From a virus (lineage: Duplodnaviria; Caudoviricetes): 64,000 nt of DNA. The translations under genes were made by a program, and so were the position numbers. The notes under the pieces were generated by a model. It made no database searches and was not told the DNA's origin. It saw only the letters and a program-made list of their open reading frames with translations. The stretch lies in IMG/VR virus record IMGVR_UViG_3300023174_003901, positions 136,247-200,246 of that record; one strand, given 5' to 3'. Below, piece after piece: positions 22,624 through 40,774 of this stretch (position 1 is its first letter; each line of letters opens with the position of its first letter).

Positions 22624-23166
22624 TTATACTCCTGGTATCCATAACCAAACGGCCTGGCTCATCAAAAGCAAGGCAAATGCGCCAACACCTATGCTGGCTC
22701 GATACAAACTGTTCTTCACGCTGAGTATACTGGCAGTGAGTAAAACAATAGCAATCTGCAACAGACTGCCTGCGTATGTGTACCAAGGGCTACGTTGCTT
22801 GGCCACTGCACGATCTGCTTCAAGAGCACGTGCTTTAGTCATTAGTTCTTTCTTGCCTTCGCCTGTGGCAGGATCACTTTCATATCTGGCAATCTTTTTG
22901 CTGAGTGCGGCAACTTTGTTCACATCCTTGCGGGCCATGGCATCATCCAGGGCCATTTCTGCCAAGGTACCTTTGATACTCTTGGCTTGATAAAATGCCC
23001 AGGTGTTGTTGGCTTCAATTGTGTCGTTTAAGATACGACTGCTATTGCCATTGCCCAGGTATGTGTTGATGGCCAACAAGGCTGCCATGACCACAATGAC
23101 CCATCCGGCTTTGTCTTTGATTTGTGCTTCACGTTCTGAACGTGATAATTGTTTTTGTTCTGTCAT
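22624..23166 (-). CDS. DUF4337-like membrane protein
   Basis: Start revised to 23166 (GGAG SD); ANNTWAFYQAKSIK motif with flanking TM helices. Confidence 0.65.
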   Translation of the reverse strand: MTEQKQLSRSEREAQIKDKAGWVIVVMAALLAINTYLGNGNSSRILNDTIEANNTWAFYQAKSIKGTLAEMALDDAMARKDVNKVAALSKKIARYESDPATGEGKKELMTKARALEADRAVAKQRSPWYTYAGSLLQIAIVLLTASILSVKNSLYRASIGVGAFALLLMSQAVWLWIPGV

Positions 23167-23185
23167 GATTTCTCCGTTGACATTG

Positions 23186-23191
23186 TATTTA
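23186..23191 (-). promoter_or_regulatory. late-promoter-like TAAATA
   Basis: Overlaps the stop of the amidinotransferase gene. Confidence 0.5.
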
Positions 23192-24181
23192 ACCACGAGC
23201 AGGGAAATAATCTTCTACTGTGCTTTGACGGCGTATGTCCACGGTCAAGCAGTGCATGGCACCGTCCCAGAAACTTCTGGTGCGAAATGGCACCCAGTGT
23301 ACTGTTATACCGCGACGGGACAGTTCTTCTGCTAGTTTTTCATTCTCTGCTAACATAATTACATTTGATTCATTTATACTCAGGCAGTTTAATTCAAAAT
23401 AGGTTTCTGTGTAGTTGCCCACCCAGTCCTGGGCATGCTGAACAATGTGATCGTTGAACATGCGATTTGTGCCCACGGTGGTGTCATAAAACTTGCCATT
23501 GTACACAGGATAAGGTTGCTGGTAGCCTATGCTGGGGTGTGCATGATACGTGGGGTTGTCTAGATATATGATTTCCCAGCCGGGAAATGTGCGTTCGTAT
23601 CCGTTGAAATAATGATTGGCCAGGATCAGTCCAGGCTTTAACACAGCAAAACACCCGTCCATGTGCCCACCGTTCTGTTCTACCTGCACTCGATATTCAG
23701 GCCACCAATTGCGATACTCAATGTCAAATACATCTGTGTCCAACACAATGTCGCGACCCACACGCACAACATTGGCACCGTGTACAAACCTATGCGGACT
23801 GGTCATTTGCTGGCATCTTGGGTCTTGAACATATTGATCAATGATCCAATCCCAACAACTGCCTGCAGAATCCGTTTGATACAGAGTGTGACCAATGACC
23901 ACATGATCGTCCCGGGGCACAATGGGTGGCTTTTGTAATATGCCGTTTTTTAAATGATTGTCTATGCTTGTGAATTGTGGCCGTTGCACCGTCACATTGA
24001 ATGATTCAATTGTGCGTTGTATTGAATTCAAATCCTCTTGTGTTATTTCAGTTAATTGTTGAAATACATCTCTAATCTCTGGGGCAAAATGCTCATACCA
24101 GGACGCAGGATAAACATCTCCCAACCAACATTCTTCCAGTTGTGACCACGAGTTGTGACTGTTGATAGTCGGTAATGTCAA
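23189..24181 (-). CDS. amidinotransferase (glycine/inosamine-phosphate amidinotransferase family)
   Basis: NSHNSWSQLEE start; PRD; GHMDG; C-terminal GAMHCLTVDIRR catalytic Cys motif. Confidence 0.8.
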   Translation of the reverse strand: MTLPTINSHNSWSQLEECWLGDVYPASWYEHFAPEIRDVFQQLTEITQEDLNSIQRTIESFNVTVQRPQFTSIDNHLKNGILQKPPIVPRDDHVVIGHTLYQTDSAGSCWDWIIDQYVQDPRCQQMTSPHRFVHGANVVRVGRDIVLDTDVFDIEYRNWWPEYRVQVEQNGGHMDGCFAVLKPGLILANHYFNGYERTFPGWEIIYLDNPTYHAHPSIGYQQPYPVYNGKFYDTTVGTNRMFNDHIVQHAQDWVGNYTETYFELNCLSINESNVIMLAENEKLAEELSRRGITVHWVPFRTRSFWDGAMHCLTVDIRRQSTVEDYFPARG

Positions 24182-25107: not shown

Positions 25108-25547
25108 TTTGGCGGCGCCTCCGCGGCACGATTGTGTGCGTCAATAAATGGTGGTGGAATCACGCATTGGTCATTGTATCGCACAACTTCACGGTCAACA
25201 TACTGTCGGATGTATGTCATGCGCTGGCGGATTTCTGTTGTTTGTTTTTGTGTCTTGGAATCAATTTGGGCATTGGCTTCTGCTGATGCTTTTTCTGCCT
25301 CGGCCAAGCGTGCCTCTACTGCTGCCACACGCTCACGCCATTCTGTTTCCACAGCAATACCGCCGCGAAAGTAAACACCCAGCACTAGTAACGCAATGCC
25401 GGCCAGTTTAAAGCCCAGTTGATAGGGCCATAATACAGGAACACGATGTGCAACAAAGCCTGCCGCAGTGGCCACAATACCTGTGAGTAACAAGATATTA
25501 CAGAACCATAAGATAACAGAGTCAGGGAGAAAGTGTAGGATAAACAT
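25104..25547 (-). CDS. i-spanin (Rz-like)
   Basis: N-terminal TM segments, A/E/K-rich coiled coil, C-terminal Cys. Confidence 0.7.
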   Translation of the reverse strand: MFILHFLPDSVILWFCNILLLTGIVATAAGFVAHRVPVLWPYQLGFKLAGIALLVLGVYFRGGIAVETEWRERVAAVEARLAEAEKASAEANAQIDSKTQKQTTEIRQRMTYIRQYVDREVVRYNDQCVIPPPFIDAHNRAAEAPPK

Positions 25548-25555
25548 TATGCTAA

Positions 25556-25561
25556 TATTTA
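25556..25561 (-). promoter_or_regulatory. late-promoter-like TAAATA for the spanin-endolysin operon
   Basis: 8 nt before ATG 25547. Confidence 0.55.
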
Positions 25562-25568
25562 TCGTTGA

Positions 25569-25574
25569 TAACTA
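25569..25574 (+). promoter_or_regulatory. late-promoter-like variant TAACTA (divergent)
   Basis: 4 nt before ATG 25579. Confidence 0.4.
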
Positions 25575-25578
25575 CTTG

Positions 25579-26820
25579 ATGAATGTTCTAATTCTTACAC
25601 CGGATGCAGTGGGCAGTACTTTGTTGCAACGTATGTTGACCATTTACATGCAATTTCATGCGTTTGGCCGTCCAGTTATCAACCTACACGAACTGACCAA
25701 TGGCCTGGCCCGATACTACAGCCCTGAATTCAATCAAGAATTGGTCAGTAAACATGCCTTGAAAGAGTGGGGATATCATCAGTCACTGGCACAGGTGACT
25801 GAGATGTTGAGCAGTGTGGATCACTACAAAACGTCAAGACTTGCACACTATCATATTGTGCGCCGCGGGGACTCCGTGGCGGAACAAATTCCATTTTATA
25901 ATTATCTCAATGAGAATTTTTTTGTAATTGCCTGCCGACGTGAGAACGTGTTTGAGCATGCGCTCAGCATGACTCTCAGCACTGTGACAAAAAAACTCAA
26001 TGTGTACGATGTGTATGAAAAAGTAGACACTTTTTATGACATGTACAAATCTGGGATCAACCTGGATGCCACAGTATTTGAGCGCCAATTGACAGCCTAC
26101 AAAAATTATCTCACCTGGAGTGAACAGTATTTTGATATTGGTGCATATTTCCATTACGAAAAAGATATTCCCAGACTGGAACAATACATCCTAAATCTGC
26201 CGGTATTTGCCGCACAGGCCACACAGATAACCTGGGATCAAAATTTCGGGCACAGTTTCAATGACTGGAATCAAATGCACTATATCCGTAGCAATCCTAG
26301 TGCATTGTCCTGTCTGCCCGCACAGGCCGTGGAAAAATTGTTGTTGACTCTGGATCCAGTTGATGATTATCAACAGCACAGTCAGCCAGAAATGCCGCCT
26401 GTTTATTCTGCCGCAGATCTTGCGGCGCTGCCTGAACATGTGGTCAACACCTGGACTCGTGACGTGATCAGCCGCACAGGCATTGTGCCTTTCCTGGACT
26501 CAGAAAAACAGCAAAAACTAGCACCATATGAGTCTGGTTATGCCATGGCCAAAGCCACAATAGATCAAATGATCCAATTAGGCATAATGGTCAGTGGCCC
26601 GCCTATCAAAAAACAAACACTAGATGACAAGCACCAAATAATCAAAAATTTTGATCAATTGATCACAGTGTACAACCATTGGATTGAACAAAATCCTGGT
26701 ATTGGAGAGCCCATTGACAGTGATAAAATACAGAATCAAATATCAACAGAATCTAACTTCTGGAATTCAATTATGAATTCAAAAGATTCTGTACCTGCGT
26801 TGCTACCCATTCAGCCGTGA
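25579..26820 (+). CDS. P-loop sulfotransferase-like protein
   Basis: Start revised to MNVLILTPDAVGSTLLQR (resembles the 5'-PSB loop); CRRENVFEHALS; FHYE. Confidence 0.5.
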   Translation: MNVLILTPDAVGSTLLQRMLTIYMQFHAFGRPVINLHELTNGLARYYSPEFNQELVSKHALKEWGYHQSLAQVTEMLSSVDHYKTSRLAHYHIVRRGDSVAEQIPFYNYLNENFFVIACRRENVFEHALSMTLSTVTKKLNVYDVYEKVDTFYDMYKSGINLDATVFERQLTAYKNYLTWSEQYFDIGAYFHYEKDIPRLEQYILNLPVFAAQATQITWDQNFGHSFNDWNQMHYIRSNPSALSCLPAQAVEKLLLTLDPVDDYQQHSQPEMPPVYSAADLAALPEHVVNTWTRDVISRTGIVPFLDSEKQQKLAPYESGYAMAKATIDQMIQLGIMVSGPPIKKQTLDDKHQIIKNFDQLITVYNHWIEQNPGIGEPIDSDKIQNQISTESNFWNSIMNSKDSVPALLPIQP

Positions 26821-27634
26821 GGAGATCAAAGTGCAGTCCGTCACGTGCTCGATCCAGATATTCAACTCTTATTAAATCACACAAAAACTCAGGATGACTC
26901 TGTTGTATTGCTTGAAACTCCAGCAAGCCCTTGATATCTATACCGTGTAGTGTGCGCAATTCTGTGACAATTTCGGGATAAAGATCCTGACATTCTGTTG
27001 AACTTGATGGCAACAGAATTGGCCAATTAGGATCACGTGTTTTTTGCCAGGCCGCATCAGTAAAGGAGTTATTGCTGAAGTTTGGCACAATAGATTCTAT
27101 CACACGTGAATTTGCACAATGTGTACGAACCTTTTTCCTACATGAATAGAAATTTTCAAAATCCTGTATATCAGTTGACTTCACATGATGCTGACGACGA
27201 TCCAGATCCGACAGGTCAGCGTCAGGGTGTTCTCGACGATGCAAATAACTCCACATTATCACAATGTCACTGGGTCCGGCAAGATCATATGCATCACATG
27301 CTGTTCTAGCAATCCATTCATTGCTGGCCCCGTCCATGGCCACCGTGATCACACGGCGCTGACTGTGTTGGCTCAGCACTTGAGGCCAGGTGTGCTCAAA
27401 GCAACTGCCCAGGCCTACGGTAAAACTATCACCCAGGCACCACACAGCAGACTCTAAATCCTCCGGCCATTCCTGATCTCTAAATCCTCTGCTGTTGTAT
27501 CGGTAGTCAATTGAGTGTGGCCATTGTGTGAACACTTCCCGGTCTAAACATCTGTTCAAACTGTCCATTCCAGAATAGTCAAACTGTTGGTTGGCAAGTT
27601 CAGGCAGGGTCAATGGACCATTGACTGCGTTCAT
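26771..27634 (-). CDS. SGNH/GDSL-like protein
   Basis: YRYNSRGFRD...WCLGDSFTVG...AMDGASNEWI...DGLH. Confidence 0.65.
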   Translation of the reverse strand: MNAVNGPLTLPELANQQFDYSGMDSLNRCLDREVFTQWPHSIDYRYNSRGFRDQEWPEDLESAVWCLGDSFTVGLGSCFEHTWPQVLSQHSQRRVITVAMDGASNEWIARTACDAYDLAGPSDIVIMWSYLHRREHPDADLSDLDRRQHHVKSTDIQDFENFYSCRKKVRTHCANSRVIESIVPNFSNNSFTDAAWQKTRDPNWPILLPSSSTECQDLYPEIVTELRTLHGIDIKGLLEFQAIQQSHPEFLCDLIRVEYLDRARDGLHFDLLTAEWVATQVQNLLNS

Positions 27635-27646
27635 ATTTGACCCTGG

Positions 27647-27871
27647 TTAATCTTTGTCTGTGACAATTACTGCCACATTATCTACCCAGACCATTCGCCC
27701 AACACAAGCAATATTCCATTTGGTTTCACCATGCTCTTGAGTGCATTCTGTGTAGGTTTCGCCAATCAATCTCACATCTTTGGCCAGATGTTCCGTACCA
27801 TTTTCAAATATGCGCCAAACCAATTCTGAGCCATTGTGTCGGGTGTTGAATCTCACGTGGTACTTATTCAA
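27647..27871 (-). CDS. hypothetical protein
   Basis: 74 aa, TTG start, fills the gap. Confidence 0.55.
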   Translation of the reverse strand: MNKYHVRFNTRHNGSELVWRIFENGTEHLAKDVRLIGETYTECTQEHGETKWNIACVGRMVWVDNVAVIVTDKD

Positions 27872-28706
27872 GGCCCAGAGACTTTCTTATATTGGTCGCA
27901 GAGATATTGGTAATCGATTGGTCAAAGGATTCTTGCTCGATTGTGTAACCCACGTCGCGACCATAAGTGATATTAACAATATTAGGAACAACCTGAATTT
28001 CATATTGACCTTGGTATACAGTATCTAAATCCCTGCGTATGAAGTATTTAACTTGCTCAATGGCAAAAGGATTTGTGCCTTGCCAACCCTGGCAATCACG
28101 TATTTGTATAACCACCTGCCCTGTTTTGGCAATGGCACGTTCAAACAAGGCACGATGTCCTGCATGCCACGGCTGCCAGCGACCCAGCATTTGCACAGTT
28201 TCCTTTTGCCAATCGAATGTGGGTCTACGGCGATTCTCAATTATGTGCTCGCCCACAAATTCCACCCATTTCTCTGCGTTCTGTTCTGTAATGCGGAAAT
28301 CATAAACTTCAGGTGGCACAAACATCCGGTTGGTGTCTTCAAAACGGCCTTTTTCAATTGTGTCAATCCAAATGCACCAATCTGCTTTGAAATTGTTGCG
28401 CATTTCCACCAAGGGTGCCACAAAGTCCACAATACAATAGTCAGTATTGGCTTCGTCTGCTAGGTCTCGCATGCGCAGACTTTGTCTAACTCGTCCTTCT
28501 GTTGAGAAGTCCCAATCATTGTAGTGTCTACGCACTTCGTCGGCATTGAGCCATGCCACTGTGATTCGAGCATCAGCAATGGGTCTTAGACTGTGCTCAT
28601 TGATGGGTGTGATGTGATCTTCGAGATAGCGTTTTAATCGTTCTGCAAAGTAGGTTTTGCCCGAGCCGGGCAGGCCCATTATTAATATGCGTTTAGGTGT
28701 TTTCAT
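27864..28706 (-). CDS. adenylylsulfate-kinase-like + HxGH nucleotidyltransferase fusion
   Basis: GLPGSGKT...LNADEVR...DWDFS..GR; C-terminal GRWQPWHAGH. Confidence 0.75.
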   Translation of the reverse strand: MKTPKRILIMGLPGSGKTYFAERLKRYLEDHITPINEHSLRPIADARITVAWLNADEVRRHYNDWDFSTEGRVRQSLRMRDLADEANTDYCIVDFVAPLVEMRNNFKADWCIWIDTIEKGRFEDTNRMFVPPEVYDFRITEQNAEKWVEFVGEHIIENRRRPTFDWQKETVQMLGRWQPWHAGHRALFERAIAKTGQVVIQIRDCQGWQGTNPFAIEQVKYFIRRDLDTVYQGQYEIQVVPNIVNITYGRDVGYTIEQESFDQSITNISATNIRKSLGLE

Positions 28707-29328
28707 AGTAGTTCTCCAGTATAAATTTGGCTATAGATTCATGTTCAGAATCTGAGGGGTGTTTGACATGTGGTATTAATTTATTAGTTATTAAATCATT
28801 GATAGTTAAATCCACTAATTTTATTTGTTTTGCATCACAATGTGCTTGGATTGCCTGCCGATAATTCCGAGTCTTTTTTGCCATTTCCTGGCTGTCAAAA
28901 TAATTTTCAATCAAGAATGGGTACACCGCAGATAGATCATTTATCGCCTGATCACTATCGCCGGTGAACCATGCTCCATGCTCGCGCTTGTCGTGCATTT
29001 CAAAGTTGACTAAATCAATCATGCTACTGGCCCAATTGGGCAACACAAACCAATGTCGATTTTGATTTTTCCAATACAGTCGTTCATTGCTGGTCCACAT
29101 CACAACAACAGAATGTATATTGTTTGCGCTGTGTAAATGGTCCATGACACTGTGAAATATGTATTCATTTGACGCACCACTCAAGGCAACATTTACTAGT
29201 TCTGTGTTTAATGCTCGAGACATATAAGCAGAGTAGGATCTTTTGACATTTTCTTCATGCATGAATCCGTTGTACAACTCTGCACCGTGAGTGACTGAAC
29301 ATCCTGACACCAGTAACTTTTGTTTCAT
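28693..29328 (-). CDS. SGNH/GDSL-like protein
   Basis: LVSGCSVTHG...NVALSGASNEYI...HPSD..H. Confidence 0.6.
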   Translation of the reverse strand: MKQKLLVSGCSVTHGAELYNGFMHEENVKRSYSAYMSRALNTELVNVALSGASNEYIFHSVMDHLHSANNIHSVVVMWTSNERLYWKNQNRHWFVLPNWASSMIDLVNFEMHDKREHGAWFTGDSDQAINDLSAVYPFLIENYFDSQEMAKKTRNYRQAIQAHCDAKQIKLVDLTINDLITNKLIPHVKHPSDSEHESIAKFILENYYENT

Positions 29329-29945
29329 GTGTGTTTTCTACTAGCGTGTCGTGCAAGATCATCTGTGGCGTGATGTGCAATGGGTTTAAAATACTTGGCA
29401 TTTGCATCCGTTGCTAATATATCCTTTAATCTGGGATCTGCTGTGGCAATTGGGAAGGCCAGTTGTTGTTGAATATTTTCTAGATATCGTTGGCCATAAA
29501 GATGCAGTAATTCATAACTCAAGAACACAGGTGCTGCCAATTGATCAAACTCTGCCAGGGCCGTGCTCAATGTAGTTGCGCCACGGACACGGGACTGTTG
29601 CATTTGAACTATGTTCTGATCACGTCCTAACACAGCAAACTTTATACGTAGACCTGCTATTTGCAATTTAGACACAAATGCTTTGAAATTGGGCACCGTA
29701 GGCACACCATTATTCATATACGGCACACTCATTGACGTCACATACCAGTCGCTCTGAGCCCATCTGTAGTATCGCAATTGATCAGGATCCTGCCAGTACT
29801 GTGCAAATGGCTCTTGATCATGTCCTATCCAATAATCCGTTAATAGTGCTGACCATCCTGAGACCTGAGGGTGTAGGGCAAATATCTTGCTCCATAAGTG
29901 ATTGCCTGCGCCTTGCGGGCCTGTTAAGATTAATATTGTTTTCAT
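29325..29945 (-). CDS. P-loop sulfotransferase/kinase-like protein
   Basis: LILTGPQGAGNHLWSK...LGRD...LSYE. Confidence 0.5.
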   Translation of the reverse strand: MKTILILTGPQGAGNHLWSKIFALHPQVSGWSALLTDYWIGHDQEPFAQYWQDPDQLRYYRWAQSDWYVTSMSVPYMNNGVPTVPNFKAFVSKLQIAGLRIKFAVLGRDQNIVQMQQSRVRGATTLSTALAEFDQLAAPVFLSYELLHLYGQRYLENIQQQLAFPIATADPRLKDILATDANAKYFKPIAHHATDDLARHASRKHT

Positions 29946-30592
29946 CGGGGTAGTGCCGCTAGGTAGTCCATGGTTGCGGCAGTTCGTATGCCTGTTAATT
30001 GCAATGTCACGCGAGGATCAAAGCCTGCGTTGGCTGTGCAGTGTGGAATATTGGCCCAGTCAAATGTTGTTACATCTCCTGCCCGCCAATGGTTGTAGTG
30101 ATAATTGCCGTATTCCCAGAACTGTCCTGGCTGCCACGCTGTCAATTGAATCATTATACGCATGATGCTGTCAGGGTGTTCGGGGCTCCATTTCTGCAAT
30201 TTATCTATGTGTAGATTCCATACTTCTCCAGGCTGCTGTACGTGTATGCGATTCATGCAGTCTTCCAGTGCAAAAGCATCACTGATACGCTGTAGACTTT
30301 CAGGCATGCGCCACGTCAAATGTGAAATAGGCAAGTCCGCAGGCATGCCATTTGCCGTCAAATCATATTCTTCTTTTTCAAGTTCTTCCGGCGGCGCTTC
30401 CAGTCCTTCACCTTTGTAACCACGTGTGGCCCAGGTTGCAGGTCGTGCGTTTGCAACAATATCCGTTAAGTCGTGAGCCCACGTGGGTTCTATACAGCCC
30501 AAGTATGCAACAACCGTTTCCGGCCGATCTATTTGTTTAGGATCAAAATGATAGGTGCTCTTGGACTTTGATATTTCCCAATTTGATTTCAT
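29942..30592 (-). CDS. 2OG-Fe(II) oxygenase / cupin-like protein
   Basis: Q.PG..WNLHID (HxD)...PHCTAN...RVTLQLTG. Confidence 0.65.
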   Translation of the reverse strand: MKSNWEISKSKSTYHFDPKQIDRPETVVAYLGCIEPTWAHDLTDIVANARPATWATRGYKGEGLEAPPEELEKEEYDLTANGMPADLPISHLTWRMPESLQRISDAFALEDCMNRIHVQQPGEVWNLHIDKLQKWSPEHPDSIMRIMIQLTAWQPGQFWEYGNYHYNHWRAGDVTTFDWANIPHCTANAGFDPRVTLQLTGIRTAATMDYLAALPR

Positions 30593-31209
30593 ATCACTGT
30601 TACCCTTATGTTTGATTGACCATAGTTTTGGCTGTATTCACCTGGCGGCCAATCAAGATTCAATATACTGGCCAACTCGTGATTTGTCAGCGGGTGCCTT
30701 CCGTAATATTGAAGTTGTGCCGCTACTATACCTGCATTTTGCTCGCGAATTATACCAGCCATTGTTTTTAAGTTCTTGTAATAGTCATGATACAGTGGAT
30801 ATGTGATGTCAAAATGGCCGCACTTGACCCACCAACCTAAACAAGCGTCATCATCACGATGCACCAACACTATGGGGCAGTCAGGCCATGTTGCTTTGAT
30901 ATAATCAATATGATTGGCAAACACGTGACTTTTGATAATTCTAATTCCTGTGCCCGAAAATGGCCTATCAAATTCTGCTTCGCACTGGTCTTTTGTGTAT
31001 TGATCCAATTGATCAAAGAAATGGCCGAATTCCATTCCAGGATCAAAATACGCACCCAAGTGCATTAATTCTCGCCGGCCACTCGCATCGTGATAATATG
31101 TACGTGCGTCAGAATAGTCAGAACGATCAATATCGGAACTGTAATAAATGTTCTTTACTACACTTGACCATTTAGAGCCTGGAGCGCCAGCCACAAAGAT
31201 ATATTTCAT
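30589..31209 (-). CDS. P-loop sulfotransferase-like protein
   Basis: IFVAGAPGSKWSSV...IIKSH...VLVHRD. Confidence 0.5.
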   Translation of the reverse strand: MKYIFVAGAPGSKWSSVVKNIYYSSDIDRSDYSDARTYYHDASGRRELMHLGAYFDPGMEFGHFFDQLDQYTKDQCEAEFDRPFSGTGIRIIKSHVFANHIDYIKATWPDCPIVLVHRDDDACLGWWVKCGHFDITYPLYHDYYKNLKTMAGIIREQNAGIVAAQLQYYGRHPLTNHELASILNLDWPPGEYSQNYGQSNIRVTVI

Positions 31210-32183
31210 TCTTTACTTAAATCAATTTTACTCAGCACAGGAATAAAGGCGGCTCTTAGGTCATCCATGTGTCGTTTTAATCCAGCAGGAGTTAGTTCAT
31301 CTTCAGCATAAAAGATAACATTGGCATCCGTATATTCTCGATATTCTGCACTACGAACAGCGGCTGAGAACTGTTGTTGATACCAGTCTGCGATATCCTT
31401 AGATGTACCAGGAGGCAATTGAATTGACCACGCGGCATATACGTTAATGCCAGGTGTGACTGTGTTCAATAACGGAACTGCAGGAAACTGTGGCATTCGC
31501 CTTGTGCCGGTAAATCCAATGGGCTTTACCTTGCCCCCATCAATTAATGATTTGGCCACTGCAATGGGCACAATACCAAATTCTGTTCCTATCTTACCAT
31601 CCCATTGACCCACACTTTGCAGTGCAGGAACAGGGCCATTGAATTTGATGCTTTTAACAACATCCTTGTTGCCCCGGCCCTTGTCCATTAGGTATTCAAA
31701 TGCAGTACGATGCGCACCGCCACCAATGGCCACATTGATATTTCTACCCGATTGAATATATTTTACAAAGTCCTGAGGAGTTTCAATCCCACTCTTTACA
31801 CTTGCAACTAGTACCAATGGTGATTTACCCATTGTGAGCACATCAACAAATGAATCGTAATTGTATTTTTTGATGTTCTTTTCCCAGATGTCGTTTGTGA
31901 CATAACTGCTCATGTGGCTGGGCAGATTAATGGTGTGCCCATCATTGGCGGCTTCTAAAAACCGGTTGTTGGCAATCACACTGTCTGCGCCAGGAATGTT
32001 TTGTACAACATACACAAAGTTGGGATTGCGCTTCTGCACAATTTCAGCCAGTTTGCGGAAGGCCATTTCGTTTCCGGCCCCGGGGGTGTTGCCAATAACA
32101 ACTGTGACAGGACGTGTGGGCTCCCAGGCAAATGCCATGACAGGCGCCAGTAGTGCGGCGATTAATAATTTTTTGATTGACAT
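31206..32183 (-). CDS. Bug/TctC tripartite tricarboxylate transporter substrate-binding protein
   Basis: Signal peptide; P.RPVTVVI...PG; NIPGA; DGHTI; FPAVP; AWSIQLPPGT. Confidence 0.85.
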   Translation of the reverse strand: MSIKKLLIAALLAPVMAFAWEPTRPVTVVIGNTPGAGNEMAFRKLAEIVQKRNPNFVYVVQNIPGADSVIANNRFLEAANDGHTINLPSHMSSYVTNDIWEKNIKKYNYDSFVDVLTMGKSPLVLVASVKSGIETPQDFVKYIQSGRNINVAIGGGAHRTAFEYLMDKGRGNKDVVKSIKFNGPVPALQSVGQWDGKIGTEFGIVPIAVAKSLIDGGKVKPIGFTGTRRMPQFPAVPLLNTVTPGINVYAAWSIQLPPGTSKDIADWYQQQFSAAVRSAEYREYTDANVIFYAEDELTPAGLKRHMDDLRAAFIPVLSKIDLSKE

Positions 32184-32235: not shown

Positions 32236-32961
32236 ATGAACACCAAAATTTTTAACCTCTTAACAAAAAATTTGCAACTAGCGTTTAATTTACCCAAGTA
32301 TGCAAATATTTCTATTGATGCTGATACTGTTGTACAAGACCTGCCCTGGACCCCAGCACGTTATTCAAAGTTCAAGGACGCTGTGGAAGCAGAGTTATCG
32401 TTGCCTTGCGATTATGTGGGTACATTACGAAGCATAGTAGACGATCTTTCAGAACGTTATATTCTACGTTTCTTCAGTGAAATATGGAAGCCACGCACAG
32501 GCGACTATGAACACACAGGTTGGGAACTTGCTGATGAGATCAACAAATTAAATCCTGAGCGTGTGTTGGACGTGGGCTGTGGCTATCACCCATTCAAAGG
32601 GCGCATACAGAACATTGTTGGAATTGACCCTTACAATAACTGTGCAGATTATGAAGTTGATATCTTAGAGTACCGAGTCAAGCATCAATACGATGTTATT
32701 ATTGCGCTGGGATCAATCAACTTTAATAGTCGAGACGAAATTGAGCAACGTTTTGCACACTGTGTGAGTTTGTTGAAACAGGGTGGAAAATTTTACTTAC
32801 GTGCCAATCCTGGTATCACACACAAAACAGGACCTTATGTGGAAATATTCCCCTGGACATTTGAAGTAGTAAATGAATTTGCTGAGCAGTACAATTTACA
32901 TTTGGATACCTACAAAAAGGATGCCAATGATCGATTGTATTTTGTCTATACCAAACTGTGA
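32236..32961 (+). CDS. class I SAM-dependent methyltransferase with a small helical N-terminal domain
   Basis: VLDVGCGY motif I; GID; YDVIIALGSINF. Confidence 0.8.
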   Translation: MNTKIFNLLTKNLQLAFNLPKYANISIDADTVVQDLPWTPARYSKFKDAVEAELSLPCDYVGTLRSIVDDLSERYILRFFSEIWKPRTGDYEHTGWELADEINKLNPERVLDVGCGYHPFKGRIQNIVGIDPYNNCADYEVDILEYRVKHQYDVIIALGSINFNSRDEIEQRFAHCVSLLKQGGKFYLRANPGITHKTGPYVEIFPWTFEVVNEFAEQYNLHLDTYKKDANDRLYFVYTKL

Positions 32962-37014: not shown

Positions 37015-37749
37015 TTGAGTAGAAACAGAGGCGCTAAGGCGCAACAACGTATGCAAACAAACATTGAAAACACAATTCCGTTTAACACACAACCAAAGGC
37101 ACGACAACGACCCATAGAACTAATACCCAAAACACGAAACCAAGAGCATCTCATACTAAATCTACTCGACGCAGACCAACACATCATTGTAACAGCAGGG
37201 CCAGCAGGAACTGGTAAAACCTATCTAGCCATGCTGGCAGCGGTCAAAGCCTTCAGAAGCGGCGAAGCCAAGCGTATCGTTCTAACTCGTCCCGCCATCG
37301 GCGTGGAGGATGAACAACATGGCTTCTTACCCGGCAATCTAGTGGCCAAAATGGAACCCTGGACAAGACCCTTGCTTGATGTACTGCGTGAGTATTACCG
37401 GCCCGCTGAGATCACTGCCATGATCGAAGAAGGCAACATTGAAATTTCACCCTTGGCCTACATGCGTGGACGCACGTTCAAGCATGCCTGGATCATTGCA
37501 GATGAAATGCAAAACGCTACTCCCGCACAAATGAAAATGCTCCTGAGCCGCATCGGCACCGGCAGCAAGATTGTGGTAACTGGAGATGTGGAACAAGCAG
37601 ATCGCAAAGAGCACAACAATGGACTGTTGGATCTGTGTATCAAATTAGAGGCACGGCCCGTGGCAGGTATGGCTGTGTGCAGACTGACCGGAAAAGATAT
37701 CCAGCGTCACCCTATAATTGGCTCAGTGCTGAGATTGTACGAAGATTAG
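37015..37749 (+). CDS. phoH: PhoH-like ATPase
   Basis: GPAGTGKT; RIVLTRPA; GFLPG; LAYMRGRTF; DEMQN; VTGD..Q.D. Confidence 0.93.
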   Translation: MSRNRGAKAQQRMQTNIENTIPFNTQPKARQRPIELIPKTRNQEHLILNLLDADQHIIVTAGPAGTGKTYLAMLAAVKAFRSGEAKRIVLTRPAIGVEDEQHGFLPGNLVAKMEPWTRPLLDVLREYYRPAEITAMIEEGNIEISPLAYMRGRTFKHAWIIADEMQNATPAQMKMLLSRIGTGSKIVVTGDVEQADRKEHNNGLLDLCIKLEARPVAGMAVCRLTGKDIQRHPIIGSVLRLYED

Positions 37750-38360: not shown

Positions 38361-38613
38361 TTTCGTATCCGTTCTCTTTTAGTAAGCGTTCAATAATGTT
38401 TTCATAATATTGATTGTAGTAGGAAACAATTCGGTCCCAATCTCTAGGAACCACTGTACCAACCATGCTACATTTTACTACAGAAAGGGTGCGAAAGTCA
38501 AGTATTACATTGCAAGTTTGAATGTCTCGCTTTTTTAGATTTCGGCTGATTGCGGTGCTTTCGTCAATTTGGCCATTGGGTTTTTTATAGTAGGTAATTA
38601 ATAGATATCTCAT
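38305..38613 (-). CDS. hypothetical protein
   Basis: 102 aa; TAAGTA 4 nt upstream. Confidence 0.6.
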   Translation of the reverse strand: MRYLLITYYKKPNGQIDESTAISRNLKKRDIQTCNVILDFRTLSVVKCSMVGTVVPRDWDRIVSYYNQYYENIIERLLKENGYEIVKPEETPEVQPQTVDPS

Positions 38614-39323
38614 GCTGTACTTAAATGCTTTTGATGGTGTTGTAAATTTTTTCTGTTACGATCAACAAGTGCGTCCAACAACACAAGATTGGGTGATATT
38701 TCCAATTGATTGCACAGTTGTTTGTATGCTGCCAGAGTCCCGGTAAAATCAACAAAAAAATCTCCATACATTATTTCTAAATCTGCGCTGGGCAAATGCT
38801 TTGATTCGGCGCTTGATGTAGTTGGAACAAGTTCACTATAGGTTAATTTTCCTTGTTTGAACAAATTCAAACAATGTTTGCGTTTTTCTTTGCCTTGGTT
38901 GCCTAGCATGAACTTAATTTCAGCAAAGTCGTTGGGCCCCAACACACGATCAAGTATTTTTCTTTTGAAATCTTCAGCAATTTGAAATTCATACCCTTCA
39001 CAGTTGATGCGTATAAATCTTGCCTGATTGATTTTTTTTAATATGTCTACATGTTCGGGCCATTTATACAAATGATAAGGAATACAGATGTGTTGAATAT
39101 TGTGTTCACTGCAGAGATTGTTAAAATTCAACAAATATTCAGTAAAGTTTATTTGCCAATCAGGCGTGATTAAACTGTGAGAATTCAACCATTTTTGCAA
39201 ATAGTTAGGATCATCCTGTGTGTTGATTTCTAACTGTTGTCCAAAATGTGCAGACAACCAACTGGCTATGAATTCCCCGCCTGCACCTTCCTGATAATCA
39301 ATTACAATTAGTTGTTTGAGCAT
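38610..39323 (-). CDS. P-loop sulfotransferase-like protein
   Basis: VIDYQEGAGGEFIASWL; PYH; EIMYGD. Confidence 0.45.
   Translation of the reverse strand: MLKQLIVIDYQEGAGGEFIASWLSAHFGQQLEINTQDDPNYLQKWLNSHSLITPDWQINFTEYLLNFNNLCSEHNIQHICIPYHLYKWPEHVDILKKINQARFIRINCEGYEFQIAEDFKRKILDRVLGPNDFAEIKFMLGNQGKEKRKHCLNLFKQGKLTYSELVPTTSSAESKHLPSADLEIMYGDFFVDFTGTLAAYKQLCNQLEISPNLVLLDALVDRNRKNLQHHQKHLSTA
38618..38623 (-). promoter_or_regulatory. late-promoter-like TAAGTA
   Basis: 4 nt before ATG 38613, inside the end of the upstream gene. Confidence 0.45.
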
Positions 39324-39873
39324 GACTTAACGATTTTATTGTTTTGGCCCAGATCTTGTGAGTGTTTGGTCCTGGGTGAGTACCTGAAACATCTTGATCA
39401 CACGATGGCATGAGATTGATAGCCTTGGATCGCGATTGTCCAGAACTGATATGCAAACAACCAGGTGCCAGGATTTTGACCTGTTGAATCAGTGCATCAA
39501 CATCTTCTTGATCTCGATCAATCCAAAAAAATACAATACGAGTTGTTGGTGTGTAGCATGTTGATTCAACAAAATTTGACAAGTTGGTCACACTGTGATG
39601 ATTCATGTAATTGCCCGACAATCCATAATTTTGACTGCGTTCAAACTGTGATGTCAATATATCCAATTCGGCAACACCAGTTCCAAACACAATGCTGTTG
39701 CCAAAAAATGCCCAATCTGCTGGCCAATTGTAGTTTTGACTATGCCGATACCCTTGATTATTAAATCGATATTCAATCAACCCAGTGGAATCTTTACCCC
39801 ATGCACGTACAGTCTGACCACGATGGTTCCATGCTGGTTGATAACAGTTGTTAATTGATTTGTCCAAGTTCAA
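39298..39873 (-). CDS. SGNH/GDSL-like protein
   Basis: YRFNNQGYR...FFGNSIVFG...NYGLSG...D..GTHPG..TH. Confidence 0.6.
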   Translation of the reverse strand: MNLDKSINNCYQPAWNHRGQTVRAWGKDSTGLIEYRFNNQGYRHSQNYNWPADWAFFGNSIVFGTGVAELDILTSQFERSQNYGLSGNYMNHHSVTNLSNFVESTCYTPTTRIVFFWIDRDQEDVDALIQQVKILAPGCLHISSGQSRSKAINLMPSCDQDVSGTHPGPNTHKIWAKTIKSLSHAQTTNCN

Positions 39874-40774
39874 TCAAGGTAGCACTCAAGTTGATCTCTT
39901 GATCAGCCACTAGAGGAATTTTAGCAATGCCATCACGAATGATCACAATGGCTTGATCCTGCTGTTCAGGGGTCTTTCCAAACAAGTCCAAGTTGTTGTA
40001 CATCCATGTGAATATTTCATTGGCTTCTTCCGGCGTGGAACTTTGACACATGAGTGTTCTTGCGTCGCGAACTCTGCCTTGTTTGAACAGGTCCACACAC
40101 TCCAGTCGCCAGTCGCCCATGCTCTTGTCCGCGGCCTTGGGTGCAATCAATTGTCCTGACTGGCTGTTGGGCTGTAACAAGTTCAGGCACTTGCGTAGAT
40201 CTGGGTACGTGGCCTTGACATAGGTGTCCAGCACATCAAGATCAAACTCCACACCTTCTGTGACCAGCACAGTTGCGGCTCTGGCAGTGAACTCTGTGTG
40301 ATCAGTTTTGGCAATGTGAAACCCTTGGCAACGTGAGTGCAAAGGTGGAATAATCTTTGATGGATAGTTGCAAGTGAGAATGAAACGAACAGTTTGGCTA
40401 TAGTCTTCCATCAAGTTGCGAAGTGCTGGTTGAACTGTGTTTACTCCTAGATAATCAGCCTCATCTACCAGCACAATTTTTAATTCACCAAACGGCATGG
40501 TCTGACAGAATGATATCAATTTGTCTACCCAGGCAATCACACGACCTTCTTTGGAACCATTGGCATACATCACATCATATTCATCCACACCCAGTTGATT
40601 GATCAGCAGTTTGGCCAAGGTTGTTTTGCCTGTGCCTGCTGGACCCGACAACAACAGATGCGGAATACTTTTATCTTGAATCCATTGCTCAACTTGTTCA
40701 CGTTGTGCATCGTCCACAAACACATAGCCATCTACAGTTTTTGGCCTATACTTTTCTACCCATAGTTCTTTCAT
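39851..40774 (-). CDS. sliding-clamp loader small subunit (RFC / T4 gp44-like)
   Basis: WVEKYRP; PHLLLSGPAGTGKTT; VDEAD; CNY; LHSRC. Confidence 0.92.
   Translation of the reverse strand: MKELWVEKYRPKTVDGYVFVDDAQREQVEQWIQDKSIPHLLLSGPAGTGKTTLAKLLINQLGVDEYDVMYANGSKEGRVIAWVDKLISFCQTMPFGELKIVLVDEADYLGVNTVQPALRNLMEDYSQTVRFILTCNYPSKIIPPLHSRCQGFHIAKTDHTEFTARAATVLVTEGVEFDLDVLDTYVKATYPDLRKCLNLLQPNSQSGQLIAPKAADKSMGDWRLECVDLFKQGRVRDARTLMCQSSTPEEANEIFTWMYNNLDLFGKTPEQQDQAIVIIRDGIAKIPLVADQEINLSATLIELGQIN

Follow-up and report, generated by a model that had tools for sequence, protein, structure and literature searches.

A candidate compact PAPS synthase in a phage: fusion of an APS-kinase-like domain with a miniature nucleotidyltransferase

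A 280-residue protein encoded in a stretch of 64,000 nucleotides from a virus (Duplodnaviria; Caudoviricetes; IMG/VR record IMGVR_UViG_3300023174_003901, positions 136,247 to 200,246) joins an adenosine 5'-phosphosulfate (APS) kinase-like domain to a miniature nucleotidyltransferase. This stretch, referred to as the window, is the final 64 kb of the 200,246-bp record. The fusion is probably a compact bifunctional synthase of 3'-phosphoadenosine 5'-phosphosulfate (PAPS), in which the kinase is combined with a new kind of ATP sulfurylase derived from nicotinamide mononucleotide adenylyltransferase (NMNAT), and it would provide PAPS for phage sulfotransferases. A first-pass annotation of the window had recognized the fusion, the order of its domains and the motif GRWQPWHAGH, all of which are present, but it gave 280 residues as the length of the kinase-like domain, where this is the length of the entire protein. 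The features of the gene are as follows.

27864-28706, minus strand: fusion, 280 residues, kinase plus mini HxGH nucleotidyltransferase, candidate PAPS synthase (open reading frame, Pfam, PHROG, structure)
28227-28706, minus strand: kinase domain of the fusion, residues ~1-160 (GLPGSGKT, NADEVR, DWDFSxEGRxRQ, DFVAP)
27864-28205, minus strand: mini nucleotidyltransferase domain of the fusion, residues ~168-280 (GRWQPWHAGH, NPF, PNI, YGRDVGY, ISATNIR)

What kind of kinase is the first domain? The fusion exceeds the Pfam APS_kinase (PF01583) threshold, with 26.1 against 21.1 bits (22.1 bits in a six-frame search), and matches PHROG 10255 'kinase' with an E value of 1e-47. With an AlphaFold 2 model of the fusion (predicted local distance difference test score 92.4), Foldseek returns human PAPSS1 (1xjq_B) first and then APS kinases. 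When a profile built from 50 varied homologues (A1) is compared with PDB sequences, the best matches are all APS kinases (4e-15 to 1e-10), ahead of shikimate kinase at 3e-4, and the APS-kinase fold outranks other P-loop kinases. K17 and R59 are invariant in the kinase half, and conservation is 90% or higher at D56, F67, R72, F95 and P98; all align with the corresponding APS-kinase positions. These positions are presumably the Walker A and APS-binding residues (D..R, Phe, Arg, FxSP).

The second domain, of ~110 residues, directly follows the kinase. G175, R176, Q178, H181, H184, G249, R250, G253 and R274 are invariant, and HAGH, YGRDVGY and ISATNIR, the last being the second superfamily motif near the C-terminus, are conserved. 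The first-pass annotation had likened the order of the domains to that of animal PAPS synthase, in which an ATP sulfurylase of the HxGH superfamily follows the APS kinase. The domain is not an ATP sulfurylase of the Sat type: a match to PF01747 is found neither in the fusion nor anywhere in the 200-kb record. The N-terminal PUA-like domain and the ~200-residue catalytic domain of Sat are absent. Motif spacing differs from that of Sat, whose own motifs we take to be HxxH, GRDHAG-like and ISGTxxR-like, and both HxGH and ISxTxxR occur throughout the superfamily. The PDB profile matches to 1i2d and 1m8p run through the kinase-like domain of those proteins only. Because the domain is not of the Sat type, its sulfurylase activity, if any, would be of a new kind.

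Nearest by sequence are NadM and archaeal NMNAT (PDB profile 4.8e-12 and 1.4e-10), and in the alignments the ATP-binding motifs GRWQPWHAGH and ISATNIR have their counterparts in MJ0541 and NadM. The scores against TIGR01527 and NF002243 (NCBIfam) are far under the cut-offs, with a best E value of 2e-6 and 26.5 against 181.2 bits and 27.6 against 127. Twenty-four profile positions stand opposite 48 residues of MJ0541 (residues 62-110), a deficit of 24 residues in a segment that we assume to bind nicotinamide. The NMNAT C-terminal helices are also lacking, as the fusion ends 6 residues past SxTxxR. Judged on sequence by the families' own criteria, the domain is a member of neither Sat nor NMNAT.

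Could the protein act in NAD metabolism? The first-pass annotation had named a NadR/NadM-like NAD-salvage fusion as its alternative. The nucleotidyltransferase would then be an adenylyltransferase of NMN or nicotinic acid mononucleotide, with the kinase phosphorylating either nicotinamide riboside or, if it acts on an NAD-type dinucleotide, the adenosine ribose. This would account for the nearest matches, with GRxQPxHxGH and NPF common to both, and the fusion gene adjoins a COG3236/NADAR-type gene in Salvovirus phages. An NAD-related role is, however, unlikely.

The PAPS synthase interpretation draws more on the distribution of the gene. The fusion family comprises over 7,600 clusters when grouped at 90% identity, with 1,985 representatives at 50%, and occurs in more than 597 IMG/VR stretches; a family of such size shows the fusion to be a real, conserved gene. 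It is conserved independently of its neighbours in the window, which are present in only 7 to 13 of 80 related loci. A sulfotransferase-domain hidden Markov model matches an open reading frame in 49 of 158 phage loci with the fusion; among the 90 loci with 6 kb or more of upstream sequence, 38 have such a match. All of these sulfotransferases are on the same strand as the fusion and 50 of 51 lie upstream (median distance 1.8 kb), and the sulfotransferase stop overlaps or abuts the fusion start codon in nine phage loci. Ten representatives all exceed the thresholds of both Sulfotransfer_1 and Sulfotransfer_3, in matches that span almost the whole protein, and they have the motifs LPRSGSTLL and VRD...S in canonical form.

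Some of these enzymes have an architecture of their own. In L031 (6043-7815), L063 (5834-7549) and relatives, the canonical sulfotransferase forms the N-terminal domain of a ~590-residue protein and is followed by tetratricopeptide (TPR) repeats and a conserved C-terminal domain with a GGLGDQIH motif, presumably glycosyltransferase-9-like. The two halves are separate genes in some loci.

Full-length homologues of the fusion, at 34-40% identity, are found in Xylella phage Bacata (L001, 7559-8735) and Stenotrophomonas phage DLP6 (L002, 7998-8729). Both are cultured phages (Salvovirus/Sano-type and DLP6, respectively), and the Bacata fusion gene overlaps its COG3236/NADAR-type gene.

The mini nucleotidyltransferase and the kinase are also found in permuted and split forms, and the nucleotidyltransferase exists as a separate gene. 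One split enzyme (L146, 2986-3405 and 3402-3752) consists of overlapping genes for a 139-residue kinase and a 116-residue nucleotidyltransferase, directly after an 833-residue open reading frame. In marine bacteria the mini nucleotidyltransferase precedes a canonical CysC of full length (P0231; PF01583 E 5.7e-63). This form is present in at least 37 marine metagenome loci of cellular context, and TPR-sulfotransferases (E 2.7e-42) and TPR-2-oxoglutarate (2OG) oxygenases are encoded near loci of this type. It is found, for example, in a single-cell genome of the OCS116 cluster. Among 25 genomes of the OCS116-type family, which are incomplete, PF01747 is in none and true CysD or CysH in none, and APS kinase occurs solely within the nucleotidyltransferase-CysC fusion. 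The missing Sat and CysD, together with APS kinase being confined to the fusion, suggest that PAPS is synthesized by the fusion in these genomes. In two genomes of the family, sulfotransferases and the fusion are on one contig.

Might the kinase half alone be catalytic, making PAPS from host-made APS, with the mini nucleotidyltransferase as a nucleotide-binding regulatory or scaffold module? Many hosts produce APS via CysDN, and degenerate regulatory domains are known in the pathway: the kinase-like domain of the Penicillium chrysogenum ATP sulfurylase (1i2d/1m8p) is, we assume, allosteric or regulatory. Yet G175, R176, Q178, H181, H184, R250, S269 and R274 are invariant or nearly so among relatives of 35-90% identity. 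The separate genes for the nucleotidyltransferase, and the genomes that carry the fusion without any other APS source, also speak against a passive module, which is hardly probable. The core of the first-pass proposal, a minimal PAPS-synthase-like fusion serving sulfotransferases, is supported by the canonical CysC fusion in marine bacteria without Sat or CysDN and by Pfam-valid sulfotransferases upstream in many phages, but the genes next to the fusion in the window are not its constant partners.

From the domain identities, folds, fusion architectures and gene associations observed, both catalytic activities, sulfate as the acceptor and every downstream step can be predicted. The C-terminal domain, which lacks the segment holding the nicotinamide nucleotide, would have derived from an NMNAT-type HxGH adenylyltransferase and would adenylylate sulfate (ATP + sulfate -> APS + pyrophosphate). 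The lid-less N-terminal domain would then phosphorylate the 3'-OH of APS, and this formation of PAPS would draw the unfavourable APS step forward. PAPS would be consumed by phage sulfotransferases, canonical in many relatives; in the window's phage its users may be the divergent sulfotransferase-fold protein g29325 and perhaps g30589 and g25579. To our knowledge, ATP sulfurylases fall into two classes, Sat/Met3 and CysDN. The balance tips slightly towards the NMNAT-derived ~110-residue domain being a third class, which together with APS kinase would make up the smallest known PAPS synthase and would supply large aquatic phages and marine bacteria without Sat or CysDN. That lipopolysaccharide, capsule, virion glycans or DNA are the targets of sulfation is speculation. 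No description of the fusion enzyme was found in the literature searched on phage sulfotransferases and on a new ATP sulfurylase.

The fusion gene belongs to a densely packed block, mainly of minus-strand genes, between 25.5 and 33 kb. The open reading frames named in the first-pass annotation are all present where it had placed them. The genes of the block are given in the transcription order of its minus-strand operon.

32236-32961, plus strand: g32236, methyltransferase-like gene at the island head, divergently transcribed (weak Methyltransf_23/25/12, E ~3e-3; in 11 related loci)
31206-32183, minus strand: g31206, TctC-family solute-binding protein with signal peptide (Pfam TctC E 2.4e-17; in 12 related loci)
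30589-31209, minus strand: g30589, 206 residues, possible sulfotransferase-like protein (Sulfotransfer_3 below threshold)
29942-30592, minus strand: g29942, 216 residues, conserved island gene, possible 2OG-Fe(II) oxygenase (HxD...H...R pattern, motif level)
29325-29945, minus strand: g29325, 206 residues, probable divergent sulfotransferase-fold protein (borderline fold scores)
28693-29328, minus strand: g28693, 211 residues, SGNH/GDSL-like, between g29325 and the fusion (weak Lipase_GDSL_2, E 1.6e-3)
26771-27634, minus strand: g26771, 287 residues, SGNH/GDSL-like, downstream of the fusion (weak Lipase_GDSL_2, E 5e-3; in 7 related loci)
25579-26820, plus strand: g25579, 413 residues, convergent, N-terminal Stf0-like motif, a lead only (TPDAVGSTLL ... 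CRRENVFEHALS)
38610-39323, minus strand: g38610, open reading frame present, its sulfotransferase label without any support

Which of these genes might encode sulfotransferases? Three P-loop sulfotransferase-like open reading frames and a fourth at 38610 had been proposed. Of these, g29325 is probably a divergent sulfotransferase-fold protein by its borderline scores; in related loci the stop of its homologue overlaps the fusion start. The gene product of g30589 falls below threshold (Pfam Sulfotransfer_3, E 4e-4, 21.1 bits against a gathering threshold of 27) over the 3'-phosphate-binding (3'-PB) region, and hhalign aligns it to phage sulfotransferases with consistent topology but without significance (E 0.016). 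As for g25579, its ESM Atlas neighbours are in part Stf0/Sulfotransfer_3 clusters and Pfam, PDB and hhalign give no support, leaving it as a lead; its start is an internal ATG of the open reading frame 25468-26820, and homologues have the same MNVLILTPD start. The candidate g38610 was dropped as a member of the system, having no Pfam match and no phage tblastn match.

Neither g29325 nor g25579 has a Pfam match, even with each homologue scanned singly. Profiles of the window families (A3, A4 and A6) are not significant in hhalign against the 590-residue phage sulfotransferases (A5) and return only noise against PDB sequences; with a more diverse sulfotransferase set (A7), a probability of 62% is reached, but for no more than the N-terminal 30 residues of g29325. 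Iterative hmmsearch through the 4,330 open reading frames of all fetched loci gave no bridge from these families to canonical sulfotransferases. The 3'-PB arginine is retained in the window's open reading frames (GRDQN, HRDDD, CRREN) and the serine not clearly so.

Several points weigh against a PAPS synthase. The PF01583 match of the kinase half is limited to model positions 4-93 of 152, with 94-152 unmatched, and the APS-kinase lid (the KGLYKKAR region, between FISP and FTGI) is absent; from DFVAP to RFEDTN there are 22 residues in the fusion and ~50 in the canonical CysC part of P0231. By sequence the nucleotidyltransferase, as described above, is like NMNAT/NadM and unlike Sat. In Bacata and DLP6, whose genomes are complete, the fusion is present and Pfam recognizes no sulfotransferase, and three close relatives (L015, L023 and L082) have it without the island. 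The marine genomes are incomplete, one unrelated metagenome-assembled genome (G002) also has CysD and CysNC, and in the OCS116-type family sulfotransferases accompany the fusion only in part, being present in 2 of the 4 genomes that have it and in 3 of the 21 that do not. In the window itself, g29325, g30589 and g25579 are under all family thresholds (Pfam PF00685/PF13469), and their 5'-phosphosulfate-binding (5'-PSB) loops, GPQGSGNH, APGSKWSS and TPDAVGSTLL, are without the usual Lys/Arg. The usual forms of this loop are PKxGTT or PRSGST, and the canonical phage enzymes carry LPRSGSTLL there.

These loops, and a kinase domain that is divergent and lid-less, raise the question of a PAPS-like donor other than PAPS. 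The nucleotidyltransferase would link a nucleotide to another anion or phospho-compound, the kinase would add a 3'-phosphate, and the sulfotransferase-fold proteins would transfer that group. Campylobacter jejuni offers a parallel, and its Cj1415 is presumably CysC-like. The products of Cj1415-Cj1418 make CDP-phosphoramidate 3'-phosphate, a precedent for a nucleotidyltransferase and a kinase yielding a 3'-phosphorylated donor (PMC11800397). Such a donor seems unlikely here, however, as relatives pair the fusion with canonical sulfotransferases whose PAPS motifs, PRSGST and VRD...S, are intact, the partner kinase in marine bacteria is a canonical CysC, and the island shows no glutamine kinase or amidohydrolase-type gene.

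The SGNH/GDSL-like g28693 is in none of 80 related loci and is unique to the window. Given this, and the overlap of g29325 with the fusion start in those loci, g28693 seems to have been inserted recently between g29325 and the fusion, which would have been a translationally coupled pair. In g29942, H128, D130, H184 and R194 are invariant among 10 homologues, and neither Pfam nor PDB has a match; by its motif it is a possible 2OG-Fe(II) oxygenase. This pattern, together with the TPR-2OG oxygenases flanking the marine nucleotidyltransferase-CysC genes, hints at a hydroxylate-then-sulfate pairing. The TctC-family periplasmic binding protein (31206-32183) is phage-encoded and co-conserved with the island. 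The flanks hold PhoH (37015-37749, plus strand, E 8.8e-67), a clamp-loader-type AAA protein (39851-40774, minus strand) and a DUF4337 protein (22624-23196, minus strand); the island therefore occupies a variable region with replication and auxiliary genes around it. A megablast search of INPHARED phages for a near-identical record gave no match to the island.

If the PAPS synthase reading is true, a third, tiny sulfurylase derived from an NAD enzyme would alter the annotation of sulfate activation in ocean and lake metagenomes, and abundant large phages would carry their own PAPS supply. What would these phages sulfate: virion proteins or glycans, the host envelope, or small molecules? PAPS synthesis would also be explained in streamlined marine bacteria without Sat or CysDN, such as the OCS116-type family. 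A 280-residue single-chain PAPS synthase might, in addition, find use in enzymatic sulfation as a compact module that regenerates PAPS.

How does the fusion compare with known systems? It resembles C. jejuni Cj1415/Cj1416 in that a nucleotidyltransferase and a kinase that adds a 3'-phosphate build a PAPS-like donor (PMC11800397), but a glutamine kinase and an amidohydrolase are required in C. jejuni, whereas the partners here are sulfotransferases. With archaeal NMNAT/NadM (TIGR01527; 1f9a, 1hyb, 2qjt) it shares GRxQPxHxGH, NPF and a C-terminal I/YSxTxxR; its domain is of ~110 rather than ~170 residues, and the genes that accompany it in genomes are those of sulfur activation rather than of NAD metabolism. 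Relative to the APS kinase CysC (Mycobacterium tuberculosis 4rfv, Aeropyrum pernix 2yvu), ~25 lid residues are missing and the LDGD motif is represented by NAD. The bifunctional PAPS synthases (human PAPSS1/2, 1x6v/1xjq; Aquifex aeolicus Sat-CysC, 2gks) have a kinase with a lid and, joined to it, a Sat (PF01747) with a PUA-like N-domain and QxRNP, where the fusion has a lid-less kinase and a domain nearest to NMNAT; at 280 against ~620 residues, the fusion is under half their size.

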